Source of the DNA: an uncultured virus (IMG/VR IMGVR_UViG_3300048029_000465)
Taxonomy: Duplodnaviria; Heunggongvirae; Uroviricota; Caudoviricetes; Demerecviridae
DNA length: 20,000 nucleotides
Virus record (IMG/VR): IMGVR_UViG_3300048029_000465
Direction: 5' to 3' (one strand)
Positions within the stretch are counted from its first letter, which is position 1, and every line of letters starts with the position of its first letter. A program made the position numbers and the translations under genes. Under the pieces are notes generated by a model. It ran no database searches, was not told where the DNA came from, and worked only from the letters and a program-made list of their open reading frames with translations. This document shows positions 11,261-19,870 of the stretch, piece after piece.

Positions 11261-12709
11261 TTAGTTAGCGTTGTTGTATCCAACGTAGACAGCTGCTGAC
11301 TTACCAGAAGCTGCGTCAAACAACTCGTCGAAGCCAAGGTGCTGTGAAGCAACAAGGACTCGGCGCTGAGCAGCTACTTCGTAGTCTTGCTCAACAGTTA
11401 CGCCGCGAAGACGGGGCATAACAAAGTTGCTTGGGTTGATGACAAATGCGCCACCAAAACCGTCTTCTACGTCTGCAGTAAAGTTATCAGAAACAATTAC
11501 TGGAGAACCGAAGACACTACCTACCTGACCTACACGACGTAGAGCCAAATCTGAACCTACTTCATCCACAGTAGTGAACTCAGCGTCATTCAGAAGATCG
11601 TAGTAGTGAGCCTGGCTTACAACGTAAACCAACTCGCTTGGATTAAGGCCATATACGCCCATCGCGCTACGAGCACGGTTAAGCATAGCTGCTGAGAAGT
11701 CGAGGAAGTGAGCATCGCTTGCAGCTGCACCAGCGCCCCAAGTTACACCGGCTGCTGTTGCTAGACCGTTAGTGCCGTTAGCACCACCGATACCAGTGAC
11801 GTTGCCACCGTTACCCTGGAGGATTGACTTGTCTACTGCGCGAGCGTGTGCACGTGCGATTGACTGAGTAAGCATAGGCATGATGTTGATAAGAACTTTC
11901 TCGTCGATGTAGTTATCGAGGAAAGAAGTTGAGATCAAACGATCCACTTGCAATACTTTCTGGTTTACAGCATAAGTGTTGCTAGAGTAAGAATCGTTAC
12001 CAGTACGGTTAGTTACACCAGTACCAGTACCATCGTCCGCAGCTTCCATGCCACCAGTTGACCACTTAGCAAAGCTAGTGTCTGACTGCAGAGGAATTAC
12101 TGTAGACTGTGACTCAACAGGCATTTCACGGAAGAGGCTAGCGAGACGAAGCTCGAGTTGAATCTCTTCTTCAATACCCTGAGAAACTACGTTGTCGATA
12201 CCAAGAGAAGTACCTGCAGTGTAAGAAACACCTGCCTTCTCAAGTACTGACTGACCGAACTCAGTGTTCCAGCCTTTACCAGTGATAACACCAGCGAGGT
12301 GGCCGTGAACCAACTCTTTCTTATTAGCTTGCAGACGCTCAGACTCTGAACGACCATCAGCGAATACACGCTTTGACTCACGCATTTTAGTGAGCTCTTC
12401 TTCCTTCTCAGCAAGTTGAGCACCAAACTGCTTCATCACTTCATCAATCTTAGCATCTTTCTCAGAAAGCTTAGCTTCCATATCAGACATCAAACGCTCA
12501 GCGCCTGACTCGATACCAGTTTTAATTACAGTTTCAACTTCAGCCTGCTTTGCAGCTTCAGCTTCTGCTGCTTGTTGGGCTGCCTTAGTTTCTGCTTCAA
12601 CAGCAGCTTTTTCTTCGGCCTGACGAATTGCAATCTTAGCAGCAGTCTCTTCCGCTACCTTCTTAGCAAAAGCGTCCAGGTCGATTTCGGGAGTTTTTAC
12701 TTCCGACAT
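11261..12709 (-). CDS. Major capsid protein precursor from internal start (Met204 of fusion ORF), 482 aa
   Basis: In-frame ATG at 12709 preceded by AAGGAG-ATAACA, a strong SD with 6-nt spacing, exactly at the protease/scaffold boundary. Confidence 0.8.
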   Translation of the reverse strand: MSEVKTPEIDLDAFAKKVAEETAAKIAIRQAEEKAAVEAETKAAQQAAEAEAAKQAEVETVIKTGIESGAERLMSDMEAKLSEKDAKIDEVMKQFGAQLAEKEEELTKMRESKRVFADGRSESERLQANKKELVHGHLAGVITGKGWNTEFGQSVLEKAGVSYTAGTSLGIDNVVSQGIEEEIQLELRLASLFREMPVESQSTVIPLQSDTSFAKWSTGGMEAADDGTGTGVTNRTGNDSYSSNTYAVNQKVLQVDRLISTSFLDNYIDEKVLINIMPMLTQSIARAHARAVDKSILQGNGGNVTGIGGANGTNGLATAAGVTWGAGAAASDAHFLDFSAAMLNRARSAMGVYGLNPSELVYVVSQAHYYDLLNDAEFTTVDEVGSDLALRRVGQVGSVFGSPVIVSDNFTADVEDGFGGAFVINPSNFVMPRLRGVTVEQDYEVAAQRRVLVASQHLGFDELFDAASGKSAAVYVGYNNAN

Positions 12710-13318
12710 TGTTATCTCCTTTTGAACTGACTTTTCAGTTCCATCCGGTGTATCACTAGCTACTAATGAATTTTCATCTTGAGCCAGAGACTGACCGGCT
12801 AGATCTACACTATTTTTGAAAGTTTTCTTGAACTCTTCGTACTCATCAACTGAGTCAAAAGACTTCGCCAGAGAGAAAGTTGCTGCTTGATTACAAGGTA
12901 CCGAAACAACCGATACTTCAAACAACTCAGCATCCTTAATCTTTAATCCGTCGGTTTCCGCTAGGTAATCAGCATCCTTGACTCGGAAACCAACAGAAAA
13001 TGCTCCAAGAATGCCTTCTTTTACAAGCTGCGCTACATGATCGGGCGCAGATTTAGAAATTTTAGCCTTTAGTTCGAGACCGTTTTCAGTGACTTTAAGT
13101 CCTGTAGCACGTCCAATAGGCTTGTTATAGTCGTGATTAAAAAGAATAATAGGGTTTTTCTCAAAGTTGCCGAGACCACCCTTAGTCCATGCTTCCGCTG
13201 AAATAGTATCTCCAGCACGATCGAAGTCCGCAGTACTGGCCATTCCACAAATGTGAACGCCTCCATCGTCTTCTTCGAGGGCTTTAAACGTGGACGTTAA
13301 GTTAAAAATCTTTTCCAT
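11261..13318 (-). CDS. Fused HK97-type prohead protease + scaffold (delta) domain + major capsid protein
   Basis: N-terminal ~150 aa carry prohead protease motifs (ASTADFDRAGD, ILFNHD, PIG, AFSVGF, LFEVSVVSVPCN). These are followed by an acidic linker, an Ala/Glu/Lys coiled coil and an HK97-fold capsid region (DKSILQGNG, GSVFGSPVIVSD, LVASQHLGF). Confidence 0.92.
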   Translation of the reverse strand: MEKIFNLTSTFKALEEDDGGVHICGMASTADFDRAGDTISAEAWTKGGLGNFEKNPIILFNHDYNKPIGRATGLKVTENGLELKAKISKSAPDHVAQLVKEGILGAFSVGFRVKDADYLAETDGLKIKDAELFEVSVVSVPCNQAATFSLAKSFDSVDEYEEFKKTFKNSVDLAGQSLAQDENSLVASDTPDGTEKSVQKEITMSEVKTPEIDLDAFAKKVAEETAAKIAIRQAEEKAAVEAETKAAQQAAEAEAAKQAEVETVIKTGIESGAERLMSDMEAKLSEKDAKIDEVMKQFGAQLAEKEEELTKMRESKRVFADGRSESERLQANKKELVHGHLAGVITGKGWNTEFGQSVLEKAGVSYTAGTSLGIDNVVSQGIEEEIQLELRLASLFREMPVESQSTVIPLQSDTSFAKWSTGGMEAADDGTGTGVTNRTGNDSYSSNTYAVNQKVLQVDRLISTSFLDNYIDEKVLINIMPMLTQSIARAHARAVDKSILQGNGGNVTGIGGANGTNGLATAAGVTWGAGAAASDAHFLDFSAAMLNRARSAMGVYGLNPSELVYVVSQAHYYDLLNDAEFTTVDEVGSDLALRRVGQVGSVFGSPVIVSDNFTADVEDGFGGAFVINPSNFVMPRLRGVTVEQDYEVAAQRRVLVASQHLGFDELFDAASGKSAAVYVGYNNAN

Positions 13319-13650: not shown

Positions 13651-14842
13651 CTTCTGATTCCTCTACTGGCCTGCCGCCTACGGCTGGATTTGCAGCGCTT
13701 CCTGCGATATTTGAAGGTATTCTTATATCTTCGCATCCGGCTACTTCGTCAAAATTCATTGCTACTCGGGCTTCATTTGCTGTTAAAATTCCTGAGTTTA
13801 CAAGAGTCGAGTAGTACGCTGCTTGGTCTCGCAATTCTGGCTGTAACGCAGGGATGTCAGTAATATCTTCAACAATTGTAAATCCAAAATACCTTTCATA
13901 GGCTTTTGAAATCTTTTCAATAATTGGCATAATCGTCTCAAGATAGTAAAGTCTCATATTTGGACGAATATTTGCATTGTTTCCTGAGTCTAGTAAGATA
14001 GGAGGGACACCCAACGCTTTTAAAATAATTTTTTCGTTTTCTTCAATTGCTGATTGAAAGTCTAATTCTTTAAAGTTTACATTCGAGATTTTGTCAATTT
14101 CAATACCGCCGTCTAAAACTAAGGGTCTACGGCCTCCTGCATCGGGTCTGTATCGAGCACTCCAAGATTGAATCATACGCTCTTTAATTTTTTCAGATAG
14201 AGTGTTTGGGGATTTTAGTACCAACCCCGGTACAGCTCCATTCTTAAAAAAGTTATCTTGAAAATCTCTCATTCGCTTCATAAGAACCATAGTTCGAAGA
14301 GCGGGCTTTAATCGTGAGACTCCTCTGTAAATAGAATAAAATGAATTCTCTTTTACATGAATAATTTCTGAAGGCTTAAAAACAGTTCCGTTATCAAAAG
14401 TATAGCTTTCAATATAAGTAGATCCGCTGGCAGTTATAGTCATTTTGCTTGCAGGCAAATGGTATAAATGAACGCCATCATAGTAAATAAAAATATTTCC
14501 GTCAATAATGTAGTCTGTAATTAAGTTTCTACGAAAGGAGGATATATCTTGAAATGGGTTAGGCTCTGTATTAAGAAGAAGATTTACTCTGCTACCTTTC
14601 ACTCCTTTTACAACAGGGAGACCTTTTGTTTGGTCTAATACTTTAAAATTAACTTCAGAACAATCATCTACAACTATATTTACACCTCGATTTACAATTT
14701 CGAGATCTTCGTAAGCTCGCTCGTAGCTAATAGTTTGCTCACGGCTAGGCTCTGTAGTATTCTGATAGTAGCTTTGAACAGGGTTTAGCTTCTCTTCGTC
14801 CGCTTCAGCCCTTCTACCAATTATTCTATCATACCATGCCAT
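13643..14842 (-). CDS. Portal protein (HK97 family, T5 pb7-like)
   Basis: 399 aa; LLNTEPNPFQ, DGNIFIY, EIIHVK, GVSRL, FFKNGAVPGLVL, ALGVPPILL and GILTANEAR motifs. Confidence 0.95.
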   Translation of the reverse strand: MAWYDRIIGRRAEADEEKLNPVQSYYQNTTEPSREQTISYERAYEDLEIVNRGVNIVVDDCSEVNFKVLDQTKGLPVVKGVKGSRVNLLLNTEPNPFQDISSFRRNLITDYIIDGNIFIYYDGVHLYHLPASKMTITASGSTYIESYTFDNGTVFKPSEIIHVKENSFYSIYRGVSRLKPALRTMVLMKRMRDFQDNFFKNGAVPGLVLKSPNTLSEKIKERMIQSWSARYRPDAGGRRPLVLDGGIEIDKISNVNFKELDFQSAIEENEKIILKALGVPPILLDSGNNANIRPNMRLYYLETIMPIIEKISKAYERYFGFTIVEDITDIPALQPELRDQAAYYSTLVNSGILTANEARVAMNFDEVAGCEDIRIPSNIAGSAANPAVGGRPVEESEDD

Positions 14843-15212
14843 GTTTATCTCTTTGAATCTCTACCCAGCGCATCTGCTTATTCGCAGTCACTAGGGCTGG
14901 ATTTCTGCCGTATAATCTGTGCAGTTCCAAATGATGTTTATGGCAAAGCGTGACTGTGTGCTCGTACAGCTCCGCCCATTTATCTTCTATAAACTCGTCT
15001 CGCCAAATTACTATATATTCGTCCGTATAGTGTGCAGGCCTTTCTTTTTGTTTTTCTTTTAGCCACTCTCTTAGTAGAGGGGCTAGAGTGTAAAAGTGGT
15101 GAAAGTCGAGTTCTGTGTCAGCGCCACAAATGTAGCATTCTGAACCTTTTTCATACTTTGATTTAGCTCGATCTCTTATGTATTTTACTGGATCTCTTTT
15201 TAGCTTTTTCAT
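14829..15212 (-). CDS. HNH-family Zn-binding endonuclease (putative terminase cofactor / nicking endonuclease)
   Basis: CYICG...LDFHHF...TLCHKHHLELH pattern; located between terL and portal, where T5 has a nicking endonuclease. Confidence 0.78.
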   Translation of the reverse strand: MKKLKRDPVKYIRDRAKSKYEKGSECYICGADTELDFHHFYTLAPLLREWLKEKQKERPAHYTDEYIVIWRDEFIEDKWAELYEHTVTLCHKHHLELHRLYGRNPALVTANKQMRWVEIQRDKHGMV

Positions 15213-16578: not shown

Positions 16579-17010
16579 TTACTCAGATTGTTGATCTTCT
16601 AAAGTTTCTTCGTTTCGTTCTATCCAATCTTCTGCGTCAGTGTTCTCATCTTCTTGAGTAGCTTGGCGGTAGTAGATTATAATTTCTTTTTGTTGGCGAA
16701 TATATCTACGTAGCTCTTGTAGATTGTACGCCATGTTTTCGTAATCTTGTGGAGTAAGTCCAAAGAGTACATAAGTTCCATCTTGCATCTTTTCGAGCTT
16801 TTTAATTTGCTCATCAAGATTCTTTTCTGTAACTACGAAAAACTCTACATCTTGCATATCAATTGCTTTTGGGAGCGGAGGTTGATATATCTCTAAAGTT
16901 TTAAACTCTGTTACCGTTTTAATAATAGGTTCGGGCACTGGAAGGGGCTGAGGTTGCAGCATAGAACACCCTCCGAGTGTGAGTAAAAGTACACTACTGA
17001 GAATCCGCAT
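16579..17010 (-). CDS. Putative o-spanin (outer-membrane lipoprotein)
   Basis: Signal peptide with lipobox LGGC, Pro-rich segment (PQPLPVPEP, QPPLP) and C-terminal helix; overlaps the end of the i-spanin candidate. Confidence 0.72.
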   Translation of the reverse strand: MRILSSVLLLTLGGCSMLQPQPLPVPEPIIKTVTEFKTLEIYQPPLPKAIDMQDVEFFVVTEKNLDEQIKKLEKMQDGTYVLFGLTPQDYENMAYNLQELRRYIRQQKEIIIYYRQATQEDENTDAEDWIERNEETLEDQQSE

Positions 17011-17416
17011 TCTCTACCTCCTGGCTTGCCTCTTCTATGGCACGAAATACGTCTTTCGTACCGTTGTTTATTCGTGGTTCAATCAACCCTGGTTTTGCGC
17101 GAGCAAGTTTAGTAAGATTATGGCGCTTGAAAATAGATAAGTAGTCGTCCATCTCTGCTTGCATTGCATTTGCTTTTTCTGTCAGTGCTCCAACCATCTC
17201 AAGTTGTTTAGTTAAGTTTTTTTCTACTCGTTCTCGTGCAGCTACTTCCGTTTCATAAGCCGTTTCTAGTTTTACTACGTTATTACGAAGTGTAACTATA
17301 TTTGCTTCGAGCTGTGCTATTGAAGTATCCTTTTGAGCCACAGTAGTGGTATGATAAGCGTACGCGCCTCCAGCAACTACGACTAACAAGGGTAAAAGTT
17401 TAATCATTCCAAGCAT
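16994..17416 (-). CDS. Putative i-spanin
   Basis: Single N-terminal TM (LLPLLVVVAGGAYAY) followed by a long predicted coiled coil; directly upstream of the lipoprotein gene. Confidence 0.72.
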   Translation of the reverse strand: MLGMIKLLPLLVVVAGGAYAYHTTTVAQKDTSIAQLEANIVTLRNNVVKLETAYETEVAARERVEKNLTKQLEMVGALTEKANAMQAEMDDYLSIFKRHNLTKLARAKPGLIEPRINNGTKDVFRAIEEASQEVENADSQ

Positions 17417-17685: not shown

Positions 17686-17884
17686 ATAATGCTTCCTTTT
17701 GGCTATCCGGAGATTGGTGGTACTCTACCCACTCTTCCGGAGTCATAAACTTCTTTTTCGGGTACGACACTCCAAGTTCAAAAGTGTAGTACATTTGTCC
17801 TGTTACTAAGTCTTCGGTGGACTCTAAATTTGGTGCCATAGCTACGCAGCCACTCAAAAATAAGAGTGGCAGTAATCGAATCAC
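17597..17884 (-). CDS. Small lipoprotein, unknown function
   Basis: MIRLLPLLFLSGC: basic residue, hydrophobic core, LSGC lipobox; GTGA overlap with the upstream stop. Confidence 0.7.
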   Translation of the reverse strand: MIRLLPLLFLSGCVAMAPNLESTEDLVTGQMYYTFELGVSYPKKKFMTPEEWVEYHQSPDSQKEALYATYKEREEIEKRWENFIENCLLAGTLDC

Positions 17885-18213
17885 TTCTTACTCGAGTACG
17901 CCTGCGTTCCAAAGAAGGCTGCTACTACTGCTGCTACAGACACAAAATAAGTGGCCGCCATATCTCCAAGTATTTTTGAAGCTTGATCGAGTCCAATCCA
18001 ATCTGCTAGCACAACTGCAAAGGGGTATAAAAGAAGTCCTGCAAGTGCAAACCATGTCATGTTTCGTTGGGCATCTCGCATTGCATCTAAATCTTCTAGC
18101 TCTTTACGCTTAAACTCAAGATACATTGCGTGCTCTTCTGCGGAGACATGACCGTCTCCATTAGTATCTGCAGGATGGTGCTTAGTTACTTCTTCGCTCA
18201 CTTCTTTCCCCAT
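17881..18213 (-). CDS. EF-hand-loop, two-TM membrane protein (holin candidate)
   Basis: DTNGDGHVSAEE loop; two hydrophobic helices (WFALAGLLLYPFAVVLA; YFVSVAAVVAAFFG); basic C-terminus SSKK. Alternative start GTG 18201 (GTGA overlap). Confidence 0.68.
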   Translation of the reverse strand: MGKEVSEEVTKHHPADTNGDGHVSAEEHAMYLEFKRKELEDLDAMRDAQRNMTWFALAGLLLYPFAVVLADWIGLDQASKILGDMAATYFVSVAAVVAAFFGTQAYSSKK

Positions 18214-18605
18214 TTAGCCATAGCAAACTTTAATGCTACGTCTCCTGGAAGGTAGAACCACTTGTCTTTTTTGTGCCCAAGTTTTTCCATCTCTTCCCAC
18301 TCAACAAACTTTTTAGTCCAGTTGTCTGCCCAGTGCTTTTCAAAACGAAGAACAGCGTGCCCTCCTCCGTTTTTTGTAATAACTCTACGAATTTGCGCTT
18401 TGCCTATACATAAGTACCACCAAAACTTCCACATAGACTTATCACTAATTAAGTATAACAATGTAAGCGCGTAGTCTTCACAGTCACCTATGTAAGGGTG
18501 CTCCTTCATGATTTGCCAGTGCTCTCGTTTTGCGTACTGGTCAATGTCGTACTTATATGCCCAAGTTGAATTTAGTTCTTCGACTTCACGCTCAAACATT
18601 ACCAC
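18198..18605 (-). CDS. Transglutaminase-like cysteine peptidase (BTLCP / peptidase C93 / LapG-like), minimal domain
   Basis: LN...Y.YD...Y...EHW, GDCEDYA (catalytic Cys), GHAVL (His), WADN (Asp) in the order characteristic of the BTLCP family; no signal peptide. Confidence 0.8.
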   Translation of the reverse strand: MVMFEREVEELNSTWAYKYDIDQYAKREHWQIMKEHPYIGDCEDYALTLLYLISDKSMWKFWWYLCIGKAQIRRVITKNGGGHAVLRFEKHWADNWTKKFVEWEEMEKLGHKKDKWFYLPGDVALKFAMAKWGKK

Positions 18606-18904
18606 TTCACCTTATCAGCCCAGTAAGCAGCGCTCATCTTACCCTTTGCAATATTCTTTGCGTGACGAGCTTTAAAGCTTCGTCGCTTTGCTTTCATTGC
18701 TGCACTTTCACCAGCTTTTGGTTTTCCTGCAGTCTTTGCGCCTTTTTGCCCAAATCGAATCGTTTTGATTTTGTCACCTACCTTTGCTACGACGATGTGG
18801 GACTTCTTTGGGTGGCCGGGAGTACGACGAGGTTTGTTGTACCCTTTTACCCTTGCACGCGCTAATCGTGGATCTTTCTTTCTACCTTTTCTTTTTGCCG
18901 CCAC
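18599..18904 (-). CDS. Highly basic small protein
   Basis: 101 aa, K/R-rich; structured core KKSHIVV...KTIRFGQKG...RRSFKARH...SAAYWADKVKW; GTG start. Confidence 0.8.
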   Translation of the reverse strand: MAAKRKGRKKDPRLARARVKGYNKPRRTPGHPKKSHIVVAKVGDKIKTIRFGQKGAKTAGKPKAGESAAMKAKRRSFKARHAKNIAKGKMSAAYWADKVKW

Positions 18905-19163
18905 GTTTCTTTCTCCTTACAAAAGTTTTCACCATTGTAGGCTTGCCTCCAGGGTTACCAGCTTTACGCTTTCTACGAATTGCTGAACGCCTTTCTGCGG
19001 CTGTCATACGTGCTGCTTTTGATGCAGGCACGCACTTTGGATATTTTCCTTTCTTGGAAGTCTTTCGACCACAAGGTTTATACCCCCCGCCTTTTTTCGG
19101 GCGGGAGATATCTACCCACTTTTCTTTAAACCATTTGCTGAGTCCGCCTTTGGGTTTAGCCAT
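18882..19163 (-). CDS. Highly basic small protein
   Basis: 93 aa; GLSKWFKEKWVDI...CGR...YPKCVP core; TAATG-coupled to the upstream 42-aa ORF. Confidence 0.8.
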   Translation of the reverse strand: MAKPKGGLSKWFKEKWVDISRPKKGGGYKPCGRKTSKKGKYPKCVPASKAARMTAAERRSAIRRKRKAGNPGGKPTMVKTFVRRKKRGGKKKR

Positions 19164-19291
19164 TACTTAAGGTCGCTGCCGCCAGAACCACCAGCTTTAG
19201 GGCCCTTGCCTTTAGGGCCCCCAGGACCTTTTCGCTTATTCCACCACCACCAGGCACCGCCTGCGACAACTGCTAGTACAATCCATTCCAT
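19163..19291 (-). CDS. 42-aa single-TM microprotein (not in ORF track)
   Basis: Manual translation MEWIVLAVVAGGAWWWWNKRKGPGGPKGKGPKAGGSGGSDLK*; fills the gap exactly (ATG 1 nt after the upstream TAA; TAATG overlap downstream). Confidence 0.78.
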   Translation of the reverse strand: MEWIVLAVVAGGAWWWWNKRKGPGGPKGKGPKAGGSGGSDLK

Positions 19292-19292
19292 T

Positions 19293-19481
19293 TTATTTAC
19301 CCATGCGGTATTTTCCGCCTTGTGCCTTGTAAGTTTTTACAAGCCATCCGTTTGCATAAGCTGAAGGGTATACTTTAAATTTACGCTTCGCTTGTGCTTT
19401 AATACGTGCGTACAACTTTTTATTTGTAGGCACTGGTCGTTTCTTGGCAACTTTGCGCTTACTTCTTTTTCTTACCGCCAC
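19293..19481 (-). CDS. Highly basic small protein
   Basis: 62 aa with no Asp/Glu; PTNKKLYARIK...YPSAYANGWLVKTYKAQGGKY core. Confidence 0.8.
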   Translation of the reverse strand: MAVRKRSKRKVAKKRPVPTNKKLYARIKAQAKRKFKVYPSAYANGWLVKTYKAQGGKYRMGK

Positions 19482-19521
19482 GACGCTTTCTCTTTTTAGT
19501 ATGACTCATACCGCAGGCCAT
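19459..19521 (-). CDS. 20-aa protamine-like micropeptide (not in ORF track)
   Basis: MACGMSHTKKRKRRGGKKKK*; ATG overlaps the upstream TAA (TAATG), and it bridges the gap to the next gene. Confidence 0.55.
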   Translation of the reverse strand: MACGMSHTKKRKRRGGKKKK

Positions 19522-19682
19522 TACTTCTTGCCTCGCTTCTTTTTACGAAGCATAGCTTTTCGCAATGCTGGGGGAAGCTTCTTCTGTGCTGCTGTTAAAC
19601 CTCCCATAGACTTCTTTTTCTTGCCGCCCTTTTTAGCTGGACGTCCGCGCTTTTTACCGTAAGTACCTTTACCTGCTGGCAT
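19521..19682 (-). CDS. 53-aa basic protein with AT-hook-like motif (not in ORF track)
   Basis: MPAGKGTYGKKRGRPAKKGGKKKKSMGGLTAAQKKLPPALRKAMLRKKKRGKK*; TAATG-coupled at both ends; 22 K/R and no D/E. Confidence 0.8.
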   Translation of the reverse strand: MPAGKGTYGKKRGRPAKKGGKKKKSMGGLTAAQKKLPPALRKAMLRKKKRGKK

Positions 19683-19870
19683 TAGTCTTCCTCTGCGATA
19701 GCCTCTTCCATGCTATCGTATTCCCGAACTTCGGGTATCGGTAGTTCAGGAGGAGTCCAGGGTTTCCAAGTAGACTCTCCCTTTGTATATGCTTCGGCAG
19801 CTTCTTTGCTGTCAAAGCTTTTTCCTTTACCTTTAACGCACCACCTGCCTTTTCGTTGATATACTTCCAT
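19682..19870 (-). CDS. Hypothetical protein, basic N-terminus and acidic C-terminus
   Basis: 62 aa; TAATG-coupled at both ends. Confidence 0.72.
   Translation of the reverse strand: MEVYQRKGRWCVKGKGKSFDSKEAAEAYTKGESTWKPWTPPELPIPEVREYDSMEEAIAEED

Follow-up and report, generated by a model that had tools for sequence, protein, structure and literature searches.

The small internal proteins IPI, IPII and IPIII of the T-even phages are basic, are made late, reside in the head with the DNA and are injected with it, and their genes occupy polymorphic, exchangeable loci. In T4, these proteins are targeted to the capsid by an N-terminal sequence, which is cleaved behind a Glu by the prohead protease. 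For the polyvalent proteins of phages, it has been argued that they are packaged in the capsid and injected, and small solo cassettes were noted beside the large polyvalent genes (Iyer et al. 2017, PMC5512222, excerpts). Here we describe an array of short, extremely basic genes in a 20,000-nucleotide (nt) stretch of DNA (the window) from an uncultured virus, IMG/VR record IMGVR_UViG_3300048029_000465. The nearest known kind of protein is the polyvalent or ejection protein and, functionally, the T-even internal protein. The reading that we prefer, and to which we give about an even chance, is that the array encodes free-standing modules of virion-internal proteins that would be made late, bind DNA and be packaged with it; packaging, DNA binding and injection are what we infer from the genes and their relatives.

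Like the T-even internal protein genes, the genes of the array are small, basic and late and lie in polymorphic, exchangeable loci, although no sequence relation to the T-even proteins was seen. A T4-type capsid-targeting signal was considered and rejected, since three of the open reading frames (ORFs) lack any Glu or Asp. The likeness to polyvalent proteins is that modules of the 101-, 93- and 62-amino-acid (aa) proteins of the array occur in multi-domain proteins together with ART-PolyVal, PBECR5, PcfJ, Zeta-toxin-like, SLT and CHAP domains. The differences are that each window protein is a single module of 53–101 aa, whereas polyvalent proteins are defined by 2–15 domains (PMC5512222, excerpts), and that Pfam families associated with polyvalent proteins, such as the 'LPD' families, gave no match to any of the three modules. 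No array made only of poly-cationic modules was found in those excerpts.

An earlier note on this DNA, made from the letters alone, had described five extremely basic ORFs of 53, 20, 62, 93 and 101 aa, chained by TAATG or short overlaps, and had read them as a protamine- or histone-like DNA-condensing system or, alternatively, as effectors that bind nucleic acids or ribosomes. All five are present on the minus strand, as is every other gene in the window (Table 1; positions are numbered along the window). Recounting reproduced its lysine and arginine numbers exactly, with totals of K+R against D+E of 22/0 (53 aa), 10/0 (20 aa), 22/0 (62 aa), 35/3 (93 aa) and 34/4 (101 aa), and K:R of 17:5, 15:7, 23:12 and 23:11 in the 53-, 62-, 93- and 101-aa proteins. 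The isoelectric points (pI) of the five are 11.5–12.0, whereas those of most neighbouring structural proteins are 4.2–5.7. The note overlooked a sixth ORF, of 42 aa, inside the chain.

The chain is headed by a second 62-aa ORF, which is acidic. TAATG junctions occur at three points inside the chain: between this acidic ORF and the 53-aa ORF, between the 53- and 20-aa ORFs, and between the 42- and 93-aa ORFs. The short overlaps, between the 20-aa and basic 62-aa ORFs and between the 93- and 101-aa ORFs, are 23 nt long with GTG starts, and the chain runs on by TAATG from the 101-aa gene into ORF135. In each case the Lys/Arg codons of the upstream tail form the A/G-rich ribosome-binding stretch of the next gene, and neither a sigma-70-like promoter nor an intrinsic terminator was predicted inside the chain on the minus strand. 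The 53-, 62-, 93- and 101-aa genes are co-oriented, translationally coupled and lie, with lysis-type genes, between the genes for the small (TerS) and large (TerL) terminase. In a near-identical contig (L004), TerS lies ~650 nt upstream of the chain (phrog_3802, E 2e-37), so that the chain and the lysis-type genes fill the TerS–TerL gap in this phage.

Conservation was tested by tblastn of the window proteins against 83 loci. Of these, 80 came from IMG/VR, being the top scorers among at least 598 matches to the 101-aa protein, and three came from cultured phages. Matches were obtained in 82 loci for the 101-aa protein, 33 for the 93-aa protein, 32 for the basic 62-aa protein and 19 for the 53-aa protein; one of the last (L037) lies inside a 431-aa terminase-like ORF and is probably spurious. 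Pairwise ratios of nonsynonymous to synonymous substitution (dN/dS) against relatives with unsaturated dS were 0.03–0.11 (53 aa), 0.04–0.05 (62 aa), 0.07–0.23 (93 aa) and 0.09–0.10 (101 aa). Given these ratios, and homologues in 19 to 82 of the 83 loci, the four ORFs are more than chance; they are real genes under strong purifying selection. The array of the earlier note therefore stands as a set of conserved, co-oriented late genes for these four members but not for the 20-aa ORF, which, like the 42-aa ORF, was matched in L004 alone (99–100% identical to the window). We accordingly excluded the 20-aa ORF from the system.

The 101-aa protein is represented in large protein collections by at least 8000 clusters at 90% identity, all significant, and by 1067 representatives at 50% identity, which places its module among the most abundant unannotated phage families in ocean metagenomes. 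The 93-aa protein has 1213 clusters in those collections, and every source name in both families is 'hypothetical'. The 101-aa family includes 45 cultured-phage records, among them Roseobacter, Lentibacter, Celeribacter, Puniceispirillum, Synechococcus, Prochlorococcus and Vibrio phages, and the 93-aa family 56 phage records, mostly from cyanomyoviruses and pelagiphages; no Escherichia or Salmonella phage is among the organism names listed for carriers of either family. The records of phage SIO1 have no annotated feature beneath the match to the 101-aa family, in line with the earlier remark that gene callers miss such genes.

The basic 62-aa protein matched PF19197 (DUF5872) over profile positions 1–39 of 116 with 43.6 bits (E 5.2e-11; cut-off 27.5), and the 93-aa protein matched positions 51–90 with 22.6 bits, below that cut-off, so that the two ORFs correspond to the two DUF5872 halves. 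The halves are adjacent or fused in many loci, being joined in one protein in L015, L054, L063 and L069, and phrog_17747 and phrog_14910 form a sister pair in the same positions in other phages. The basic 62-aa protein, which has the motif VYPSAYANGWLVKxYK..GGxY, also matched phrog_27331 (E 4.7e-9, over 2–25 of 50), and the 93-aa protein matched phrog_23735 (E 2.6e-25, over 2–81 of 81). A predicted complex of the two proteins received a score of 0.00 (mark 0.32).

The DUF5872 halves provide a link to the virion. The 93-aa protein matches inside gene 236 of phage S-SSM7, annotated GC119. The orthologue in the cyanophage S-SM1, SSM1_115 (cyanomyovirus gene cluster T4-GC119, 495 aa), contains one stretch that resembles the 93-aa protein (33% identity over 86 columns, E 5e-4) and another that resembles the basic 62-aa protein (39% over 46, E 2e-5). 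In the accessible part of the published proteomics of purified S-SM1 virions, GC119 is entered as 'Structural protein', Y, 13 (Sullivan et al. 2010, Table S8, PMC3037559). The 62- and 93-aa window proteins and this virion-detected protein have both module types in common. They differ from it in that the halves are separate genes with the 42-aa ORF between them, and in that the module order is reversed in GC119 and in P0193, a 1081-aa protein with 93-like, 62-like and 101-like modules behind enzyme domains.

The 101-aa protein consists of a poly-basic head and a conserved module, and matched phrog_7595 (E 5.1e-41, over profile positions 3–96 of 96) and no Pfam family. This PHROG, phrog_23735 and phrog_27331 are all labelled 'unknown function'. 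Among the 150 best representatives of the module, 100 were fused to other sequence (55 with the module C-terminal, 30 N-terminal and 15 internal) and 50 were solo; longer fused proteins that contain it number 1386. When 45 long representatives were compared with Pfam, 24 had a partner domain and 21 did not, the partners being LysM (9), ART-PolyVal (8), SLT (6), PcfJ (2), PBECR5 (1), CHAP (1) and DUF6973 (1). Two of 20 others combined the 101-aa module with a cytidylyltransferase-like domain, a Zeta-toxin-like kinase and DUF5872, and P0178 is a fusion of 93-like and 101-like modules. Partners in PHROG included phrog_342 ('internal virion protein with endolysin domain'), phrog_22602 ('virion structural protein'), a 'lytic tail protein', a ParB C-terminal domain and the giant 'endolysin' phrog_7348. 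The solo 101-aa protein itself gave a weak match (E 4.9e-5) to phrog_220, which is annotated as 'minor head protein and DNA pilot'.

Gene neighbourhoods were counted within 3 kb of the 101-aa homologue in the 80 IMG/VR loci, with annotation limited to gene clusters that recurred in two or more loci. Of the 80, 54 had a gene for the head or for packaging (TerL 27, TerS 25, portal 17, capsid 14), 5 had both such a gene and a lysis gene, and 12 had neither.

An AlphaFold2 model of the 101-aa protein, built on a 41-sequence alignment, had a mean predicted local distance difference test (pLDDT) of 81.8 and indicated a confident small fold with a long beta-hairpin (31–52), a long helix (68–86) and a short helix (92–98). 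Residues H31, S35, H36, R50, F51, G52, Q54, G55, R80, H81, N84 and W95 are invariant or nearly so. The model of the 93-aa protein reached a pLDDT of 68.2. Fold searches retrieved no solved relative of the 101-aa model (best PDB match by Foldseek, E 1.3; best match with the exhaustive aligner VIA-wide, Z 2.8), and for the 93-aa model Foldseek gave no match and VIA-wide a best Z of 2.0. In BFVD, the 101-aa model matched only uncharacterised viral proteins at E ≤ 0.001; rows for XkdF, ChaB and ICP1 ORF125 (E 0.09–0.8) were not used. PDB sequence searches gave nothing below E 0.4, and NCBIfam searches with 10 proteins gave nothing above cut-off.

The 53-aa protein is built of two micro-modules, MPxGKGTYGxxxGRPxKK, with an AT-hook-like GRP core, and LTAxQKKLPxALxKAI. 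Whole-length relatives with 63–93% identity occur in L005, L007, L008, L010, L021 and L023; the first module is found solo in L014, L020, L026, L039, L045, L049 and L071, and the second solo in L047. GRP is kept in 17 of the 19 ORFs found with the 53-aa protein, the exceptions being L005 and L047, which has the second module only. The KKRGRPAKK reported by the earlier note is present and shares the R-G-R-P core and basic flanks of eukaryotic (HMGA-type) AT-hooks. It differs from them in that the residue before the G is V or K, not R, in many relatives. No Pfam AT_hook match was obtained for the 53-aa protein at E ≤ 1, the AT_hook model being very short, and searches of Pfam, PHROG and NCBIfam with this protein were all without a match.

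We propose that small basic modules, which elsewhere in aquatic phages are fused into large ejection or polyvalent proteins, exist in this phage as solo versions. The array proteins would be made late and would bind phage DNA irrespective of its sequence. The contacts would be made by their poly-Lys/Arg tails, by the AT-hook-like GRP in the 53-aa protein and, in the 101-aa protein, by the module of beta-hairpin and helix. The proteins would then be packaged with the DNA, offset part of its charge and be carried with it into the host. The 101-aa module is 82% identical in L049 and L082, whose TerL proteins are 29–32% identical, a comparison that rules out a lineage-specific structural partner. 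Because the module is about 80% identical where terminases are about 30% identical, its binding partner must, on this reading, be universal, with DNA the best candidate; the extreme positive charge and the AT-hook-like GRP also argue, indirectly, for DNA.

Several observations weigh against this proposal. Neither of the modelled proteins (101 and 93 aa) matches the fold of a known DNA binder. The conserved H31, S35, H36, R50, Q54, R80, H81 and N84 of the 101-aa protein suggest a specific, possibly catalytic site, so that the protein may act as an enzyme or bind a specific ligand. Of the 80 loci, 19 have a lysis gene no more than 3 kb from the 101-aa homologue. In the three cultured phages, Roseobacter phage CRP-207 (with 101-, 62- and 93-like genes in a row), Lentibacter phage ICBM2 and Pelagibacter phage HTVC023P, the homologues are beside, or a few genes from, a gene for a lysozyme, an amidase or an M15 peptidase, where the late operon ends; the chain in the window itself adjoins lysis-type genes; and peptidoglycan hydrolases or binders make up many of the fusion partners. 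Because the 80 loci are the best-scoring among at least 598 matches, relatives of the query are over-represented in them. The similarity to the S-SM1 protein is modest, its 13 counts are unmapped to modules, and SSM1_115 also carries DUF6321; we regard its detection in virions as supportive rather than decisive. A literature search gave no virion proteomics or DNA-binding data for solo members or for any form of the 101-aa module. The available text of the cobavirus paper yielded no ICBM2 proteomics by term search (PMC6775973), none of the 13 phages covered in the accessible part of PMC12014285 is among the phage records listed for the 101- and 93-aa families, and searches on SIO1 and HMO-2011 listed nothing relevant to the virion content of carriers.

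The interpretation offered by the earlier note was borne out in part. In its favour are the conserved GRP, the recurrence of the modules in virion-internal and polyvalent-type phage proteins and the fused 62-/93-like relative in S-SM1 virions. Like the window proteins, protamines, HU/IHF, H1-like proteins and adenovirus protein VII are highly positively charged and presumed to act on condensed DNA, but the window proteins are rich in lysine rather than arginine. No relation to protamines, histones or HU/IHF was detected by Pfam (E ≤ 1), PDB sequence (E < 0.4) or fold searches, although a missing match is not an exclusion, and the conserved His/Ser/Arg/Asn/Gln set of the 101-aa protein is unlike a plain polycation.

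The main rival explanation is that the proteins are directed at the cell envelope, where their modules would bind or perturb peptidoglycan, lipopolysaccharide or membranes and aid either entry, together with virion lysins, or lysis, together with the endolysin, holin and spanins. We consider this role unlikely. The lysis neighbours described above, which include holin/endolysin clusters, speak for it, as do the SLT, CHAP, LysM and phrog_7348 fusion partners and the fact that the chain runs straight into a cysteine-peptidase-like gene, a membrane protein gene and two Rz-like spanin genes. A cationic lysis peptide replaces the spanins in coliphage phiKT; in contrast to the setting of such disruptin-type peptides, however, spanins are present in the window and no replacement is needed. 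The 101-aa module is also fused to ART-PolyVal, PBECR5, PcfJ, a Zeta-toxin-like kinase and ParB-C, which have cytoplasmic targets. Head and packaging neighbours are nearly three times as frequent as lysis neighbours (54 against 19 of 80), and in many phages lysis and terminase genes simply share the end of the late operon. A role inside the cell without packaging, in which the proteins coat replicating DNA, bind RNA or ribosomes or counter host defence, seems to us just as improbable as the envelope role. The composition does resemble that of ribosomal and RNA-binding proteins, the modelled hairpin and helices of the 101-aa protein may fold only on a partner, and its conserved polar residues and its identity of about 80% across phages of alpha- and gamma-proteobacteria and cyanobacteria are as expected for a very conserved host target. 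Against it, the genes lie in late structural and packaging operons rather than in early regions, the fusions are to virion-type proteins and a fused relative was detected in virions, and Pfam, PDB sequence and NCBIfam searches gave no similarity to ribosomal or RNA-binding families.

Somewhat less probable still is that the proteins are packaging co-factors that condense DNA or present it to the terminase and are not retained in the head. Their poly-cationic charge, the position of the chain between TerS and TerL, and the presence of these genes near 101-aa homologues (25 and 27 of 80) would suit such co-factors, but in many carriers the genes lie away from the terminase, next to genes for the capsid, the portal or lysis. 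That the modules are fused to ejection-type proteins points instead to retention in the particle, and free loss among close relatives, three of which (L006, L009 and L011) keep the 101-aa gene only, would be odd for a packaging function. That the array is an artefact of chance ORFs in an A/G-rich stretch, or of reading the wrong strand, has a negligible chance overall. The 20- and 42-aa ORFs do lack relatives beyond the identical contig, and long plus-strand ORFs cover the same DNA, but the four main ORFs have thousands of homologues, low dN/dS, curated family matches and the same strand as all genes in the window; for the 53-, 62-, 93- and 101-aa ORFs an artefact is refuted.

The array is plastic, in that the families cluster together while their order varies and members are gained or lost among relatives. 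In relatives with related terminases the order is 53-62-93-101 (L005, L007) or 62-53-93-101 (L008, L010, L021, L023), and in phages with unrelated terminases the families are still clustered, for example as 101-62-93 or 62-53-93-101. Extra hyper-basic genes of 46, 47, 76 and 87 aa, with 0–2 acidic residues, occupy the same slot in L005, L007, L047 and L045/L052, respectively, and show that the array draws on a larger pool of interchangeable cassettes.

A 16-nt motif, GTGGCGGYAARAARAA, occurs twice in the window against 0.01 matches expected, each time at a gene joint (Table 1). It reads ...RGGKKK(K/R)-stop in one frame and V-A-(A/V)-(K/R)-R-K in the other, and is part of a 36-nt direct repeat (18883-18918 and 19460-19495, 75% identity) at these two joints. 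In L005, L021 and L023 the motif is likewise positioned where the 101-aa homologue starts, and in L007 it marks the start of the 62-aa homologue, within the tail region of the 53-aa one. The 20-aa ORF amounts to approximately a joint motif plus an ATG, since the joint repeat is duplicated at its 3' end; L005 and L007 lack it and have the 53-aa gene joined directly to the 62-aa gene. In metagenome contigs, positions 19462-19555 are replaced by other sequence, and contigs of two runs skip 19166-19285. Since the 20-aa ORF holds little beyond the joint and its stretch is replaced in contigs, it is most likely a relic of a recombination or cassette joint. We read the 42-aa ORF, which has no family match (a weak hit to NF041023, E 0.038, is below cut-off), as a probable strain-specific insert between the DUF5872 halves.

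The repeated joint sequence probably mediates shuffling, fusion and fission at gene boundaries. A more far-reaching version, which we put forward tentatively and think rather doubtful as a whole, is that the mini-genes are recombination-driven capsid-cargo cassettes. In it, GTGGCGGYAARAARAA would supply a poly-Lys tail, a ribosome-binding stretch and a GTG start with the basic head of the next protein, allowing shuffling, loss and in-frame fusion into giant ejection or polyvalent proteins. The 80-aa module of the 101-aa protein would be a universal DNA anchor that loads any attached cargo so that it is packaged and injected together with the genome. Bolder still is the idea that the transglutaminase-like enzyme next to the chain might process or cross-link the lysine-rich proteins. 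The 101-aa frame is +1 relative to the 93-aa frame across AAA-AGG-TAG, which makes a 93–101 read-through fusion conceivable. A programmed 93/101 frameshift is possible on paper, given fused forms elsewhere (P0178), but nothing supports it and we leave it as speculation.

The last ~100 nt of the 101-aa gene (18599-18700, minus strand) are 84–87% identical at the DNA level to Celeribacter phage P12053L and Roseobacter phage CRP-5, podoviruses of other families. Such unusually high DNA identity at the gene end between distant phages suggests recent exchange of the module. A 309-nt contig matched 18764-19062 exactly; the run was only guessed to be RNA, and the match was not used as evidence of transcription.

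Table 1. Features of the basic array and its surroundings, with extra basic mini-genes of related loci
Feature	Position	Strand	Description
Acidic 62-aa ORF	19682..19870	-	pI 4.8, acidic tail; heads the chain (from ORF list and composition)
53-aa ORF	19521..19682	-	17 K + 5 R, no D/E
20-aa ORF	19459..19521	-	K+R/D+E 10/0
Basic 62-aa ORF	19293..19481	-	Front half of DUF5872 architecture
42-aa ORF	19163..19291	-	One hydrophobic Trp-rich segment and a Gly/Lys tail
93-aa ORF	18882..19163	-	Later half of DUF5872 architecture; LxKWFKEKWVDI...CGR...YPKC...RRKR
101-aa ORF	18599..18904	-	Poly-basic head, then ~80-aa conserved module (residues ~22-101, ending ...SAAYWADKVKW)
ORF135	18198..18605	-	Transglutaminase-core/BTLCP-like, cysteine peptidase-like; likely true start ATG 18599 (TAATG)
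ORF110	17881..18213	-	EF-hand-like loop and hydrophobic segments
Joint motif GTGGCGGYAARAARAA, copy 1	18889..18904	-	GTG start of the 101-aa gene inside the RGGKKKR tail of the 93-aa gene
Joint motif GTGGCGGYAARAARAA, copy 2	19466..19481	-	GTG start of the basic 62-aa gene inside the RGGKKKK tail of the 20-aa ORF
Extra basic mini-gene, L007	3880-4023		
Extra basic mini-gene, L005	536-676		
Extra basic mini-gene, L045	3735-3998		
Extra basic mini-gene, L052	2144-2407		
Extra basic mini-gene, L047	3771-4001		

The families are already catalogued, as DUF5872 and three PHROGs, and are unstudied in the literature that we found: no functional paper was retrieved, and the sole paper listed for the term 'DUF5872' does no more than mention it. 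The 101-aa module crosses phage families and host phyla and has neither a Pfam family nor a solved relative. If the preferred reading of packaged, DNA-binding modules is true, marine phage capsids would hold a sizeable and variable protein cargo largely missed by trypsin-based proteomics, estimates of the charge and pressure of packaged DNA would need revision, and the 101-aa module could account for the loading and delivery of large effector proteins that act against the host. The opposite outcome, for example a role in lysis or on ribosomes, would be equally informative for so common a family. The subject is very abundant and experimentally tractable, its function being inferred.

At the head of the chain, the acidic 62-aa protein gave a weak match to DUF2188 (E 0.062, below cut-off). 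By tblastn it has relatives in L004, L005 and L007, heading a basic chain in L005 and L007 as well, and N-termini that resemble it by eye precede basic genes in L010, L020, L021 and L047. It may serve the polycations as a partner or chaperone.

Downstream of the array, ORF135 has the motif GDCEDYA and matched PF06035 with 24.7 bits (E 2.3e-5), below the cut-off of 27; its neighbours in the protein atlas carry PF06035 or PF01841. Homologues are present in L004, L005, L014 and L020, located between the 62- and 93-aa homologues in L020 and between the 53-like and 101-aa homologues in L014. ORF135 could be the endolysin, a processing protease or an enzyme that acts on the lysine-rich proteins. It is followed, 5' to 3', by the 110-aa membrane ORF (ORF110), two small ORFs, two Rz-like spanin genes (16579-17416; phrog_812, E 4.1e-15, and phrog_739, E 1.6e-13) and TerL. 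ORF110 contains the EF-hand-like loop DTNGDGHVSAEE followed by hydrophobic segments, its EF-hand matches being weak and below cut-off. It is a frequent neighbour of the 101-aa gene, with tblastn matches in 16 of the 83 loci, and its DNA is 70% identical to a gene of the Methylophilales (myo)phage Melnitz. ORF110 may be a calcium-sensing holin-like protein.

The window represents the late region of a marine siphovirus. The tail genes are of the T5 type and include the tape measure, members of Pfam families named after T5 p140 and (weakly) p143, the tail terminator and the major tail protein. The TerL of this virus is at most 50% identical to that of any cultured phage, the best matches being Vibrio phages of ~114 kb. 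The head and packaging genes in the window are a prohead protease–capsid fusion, the portal and the large terminase. The fusion is a single 685-aa ORF (11261-13318, minus strand) that joins Peptidase_S78 (residues 34–155) to Phage_capsid (phrog_267/617). Between TerL and the portal lies a 127-aa ORF (14829-15212, minus strand) with a match to phrog_3497 and weak matches to HNH endonuclease PHROGs, and its family adjoins the terminase in 9 related loci.

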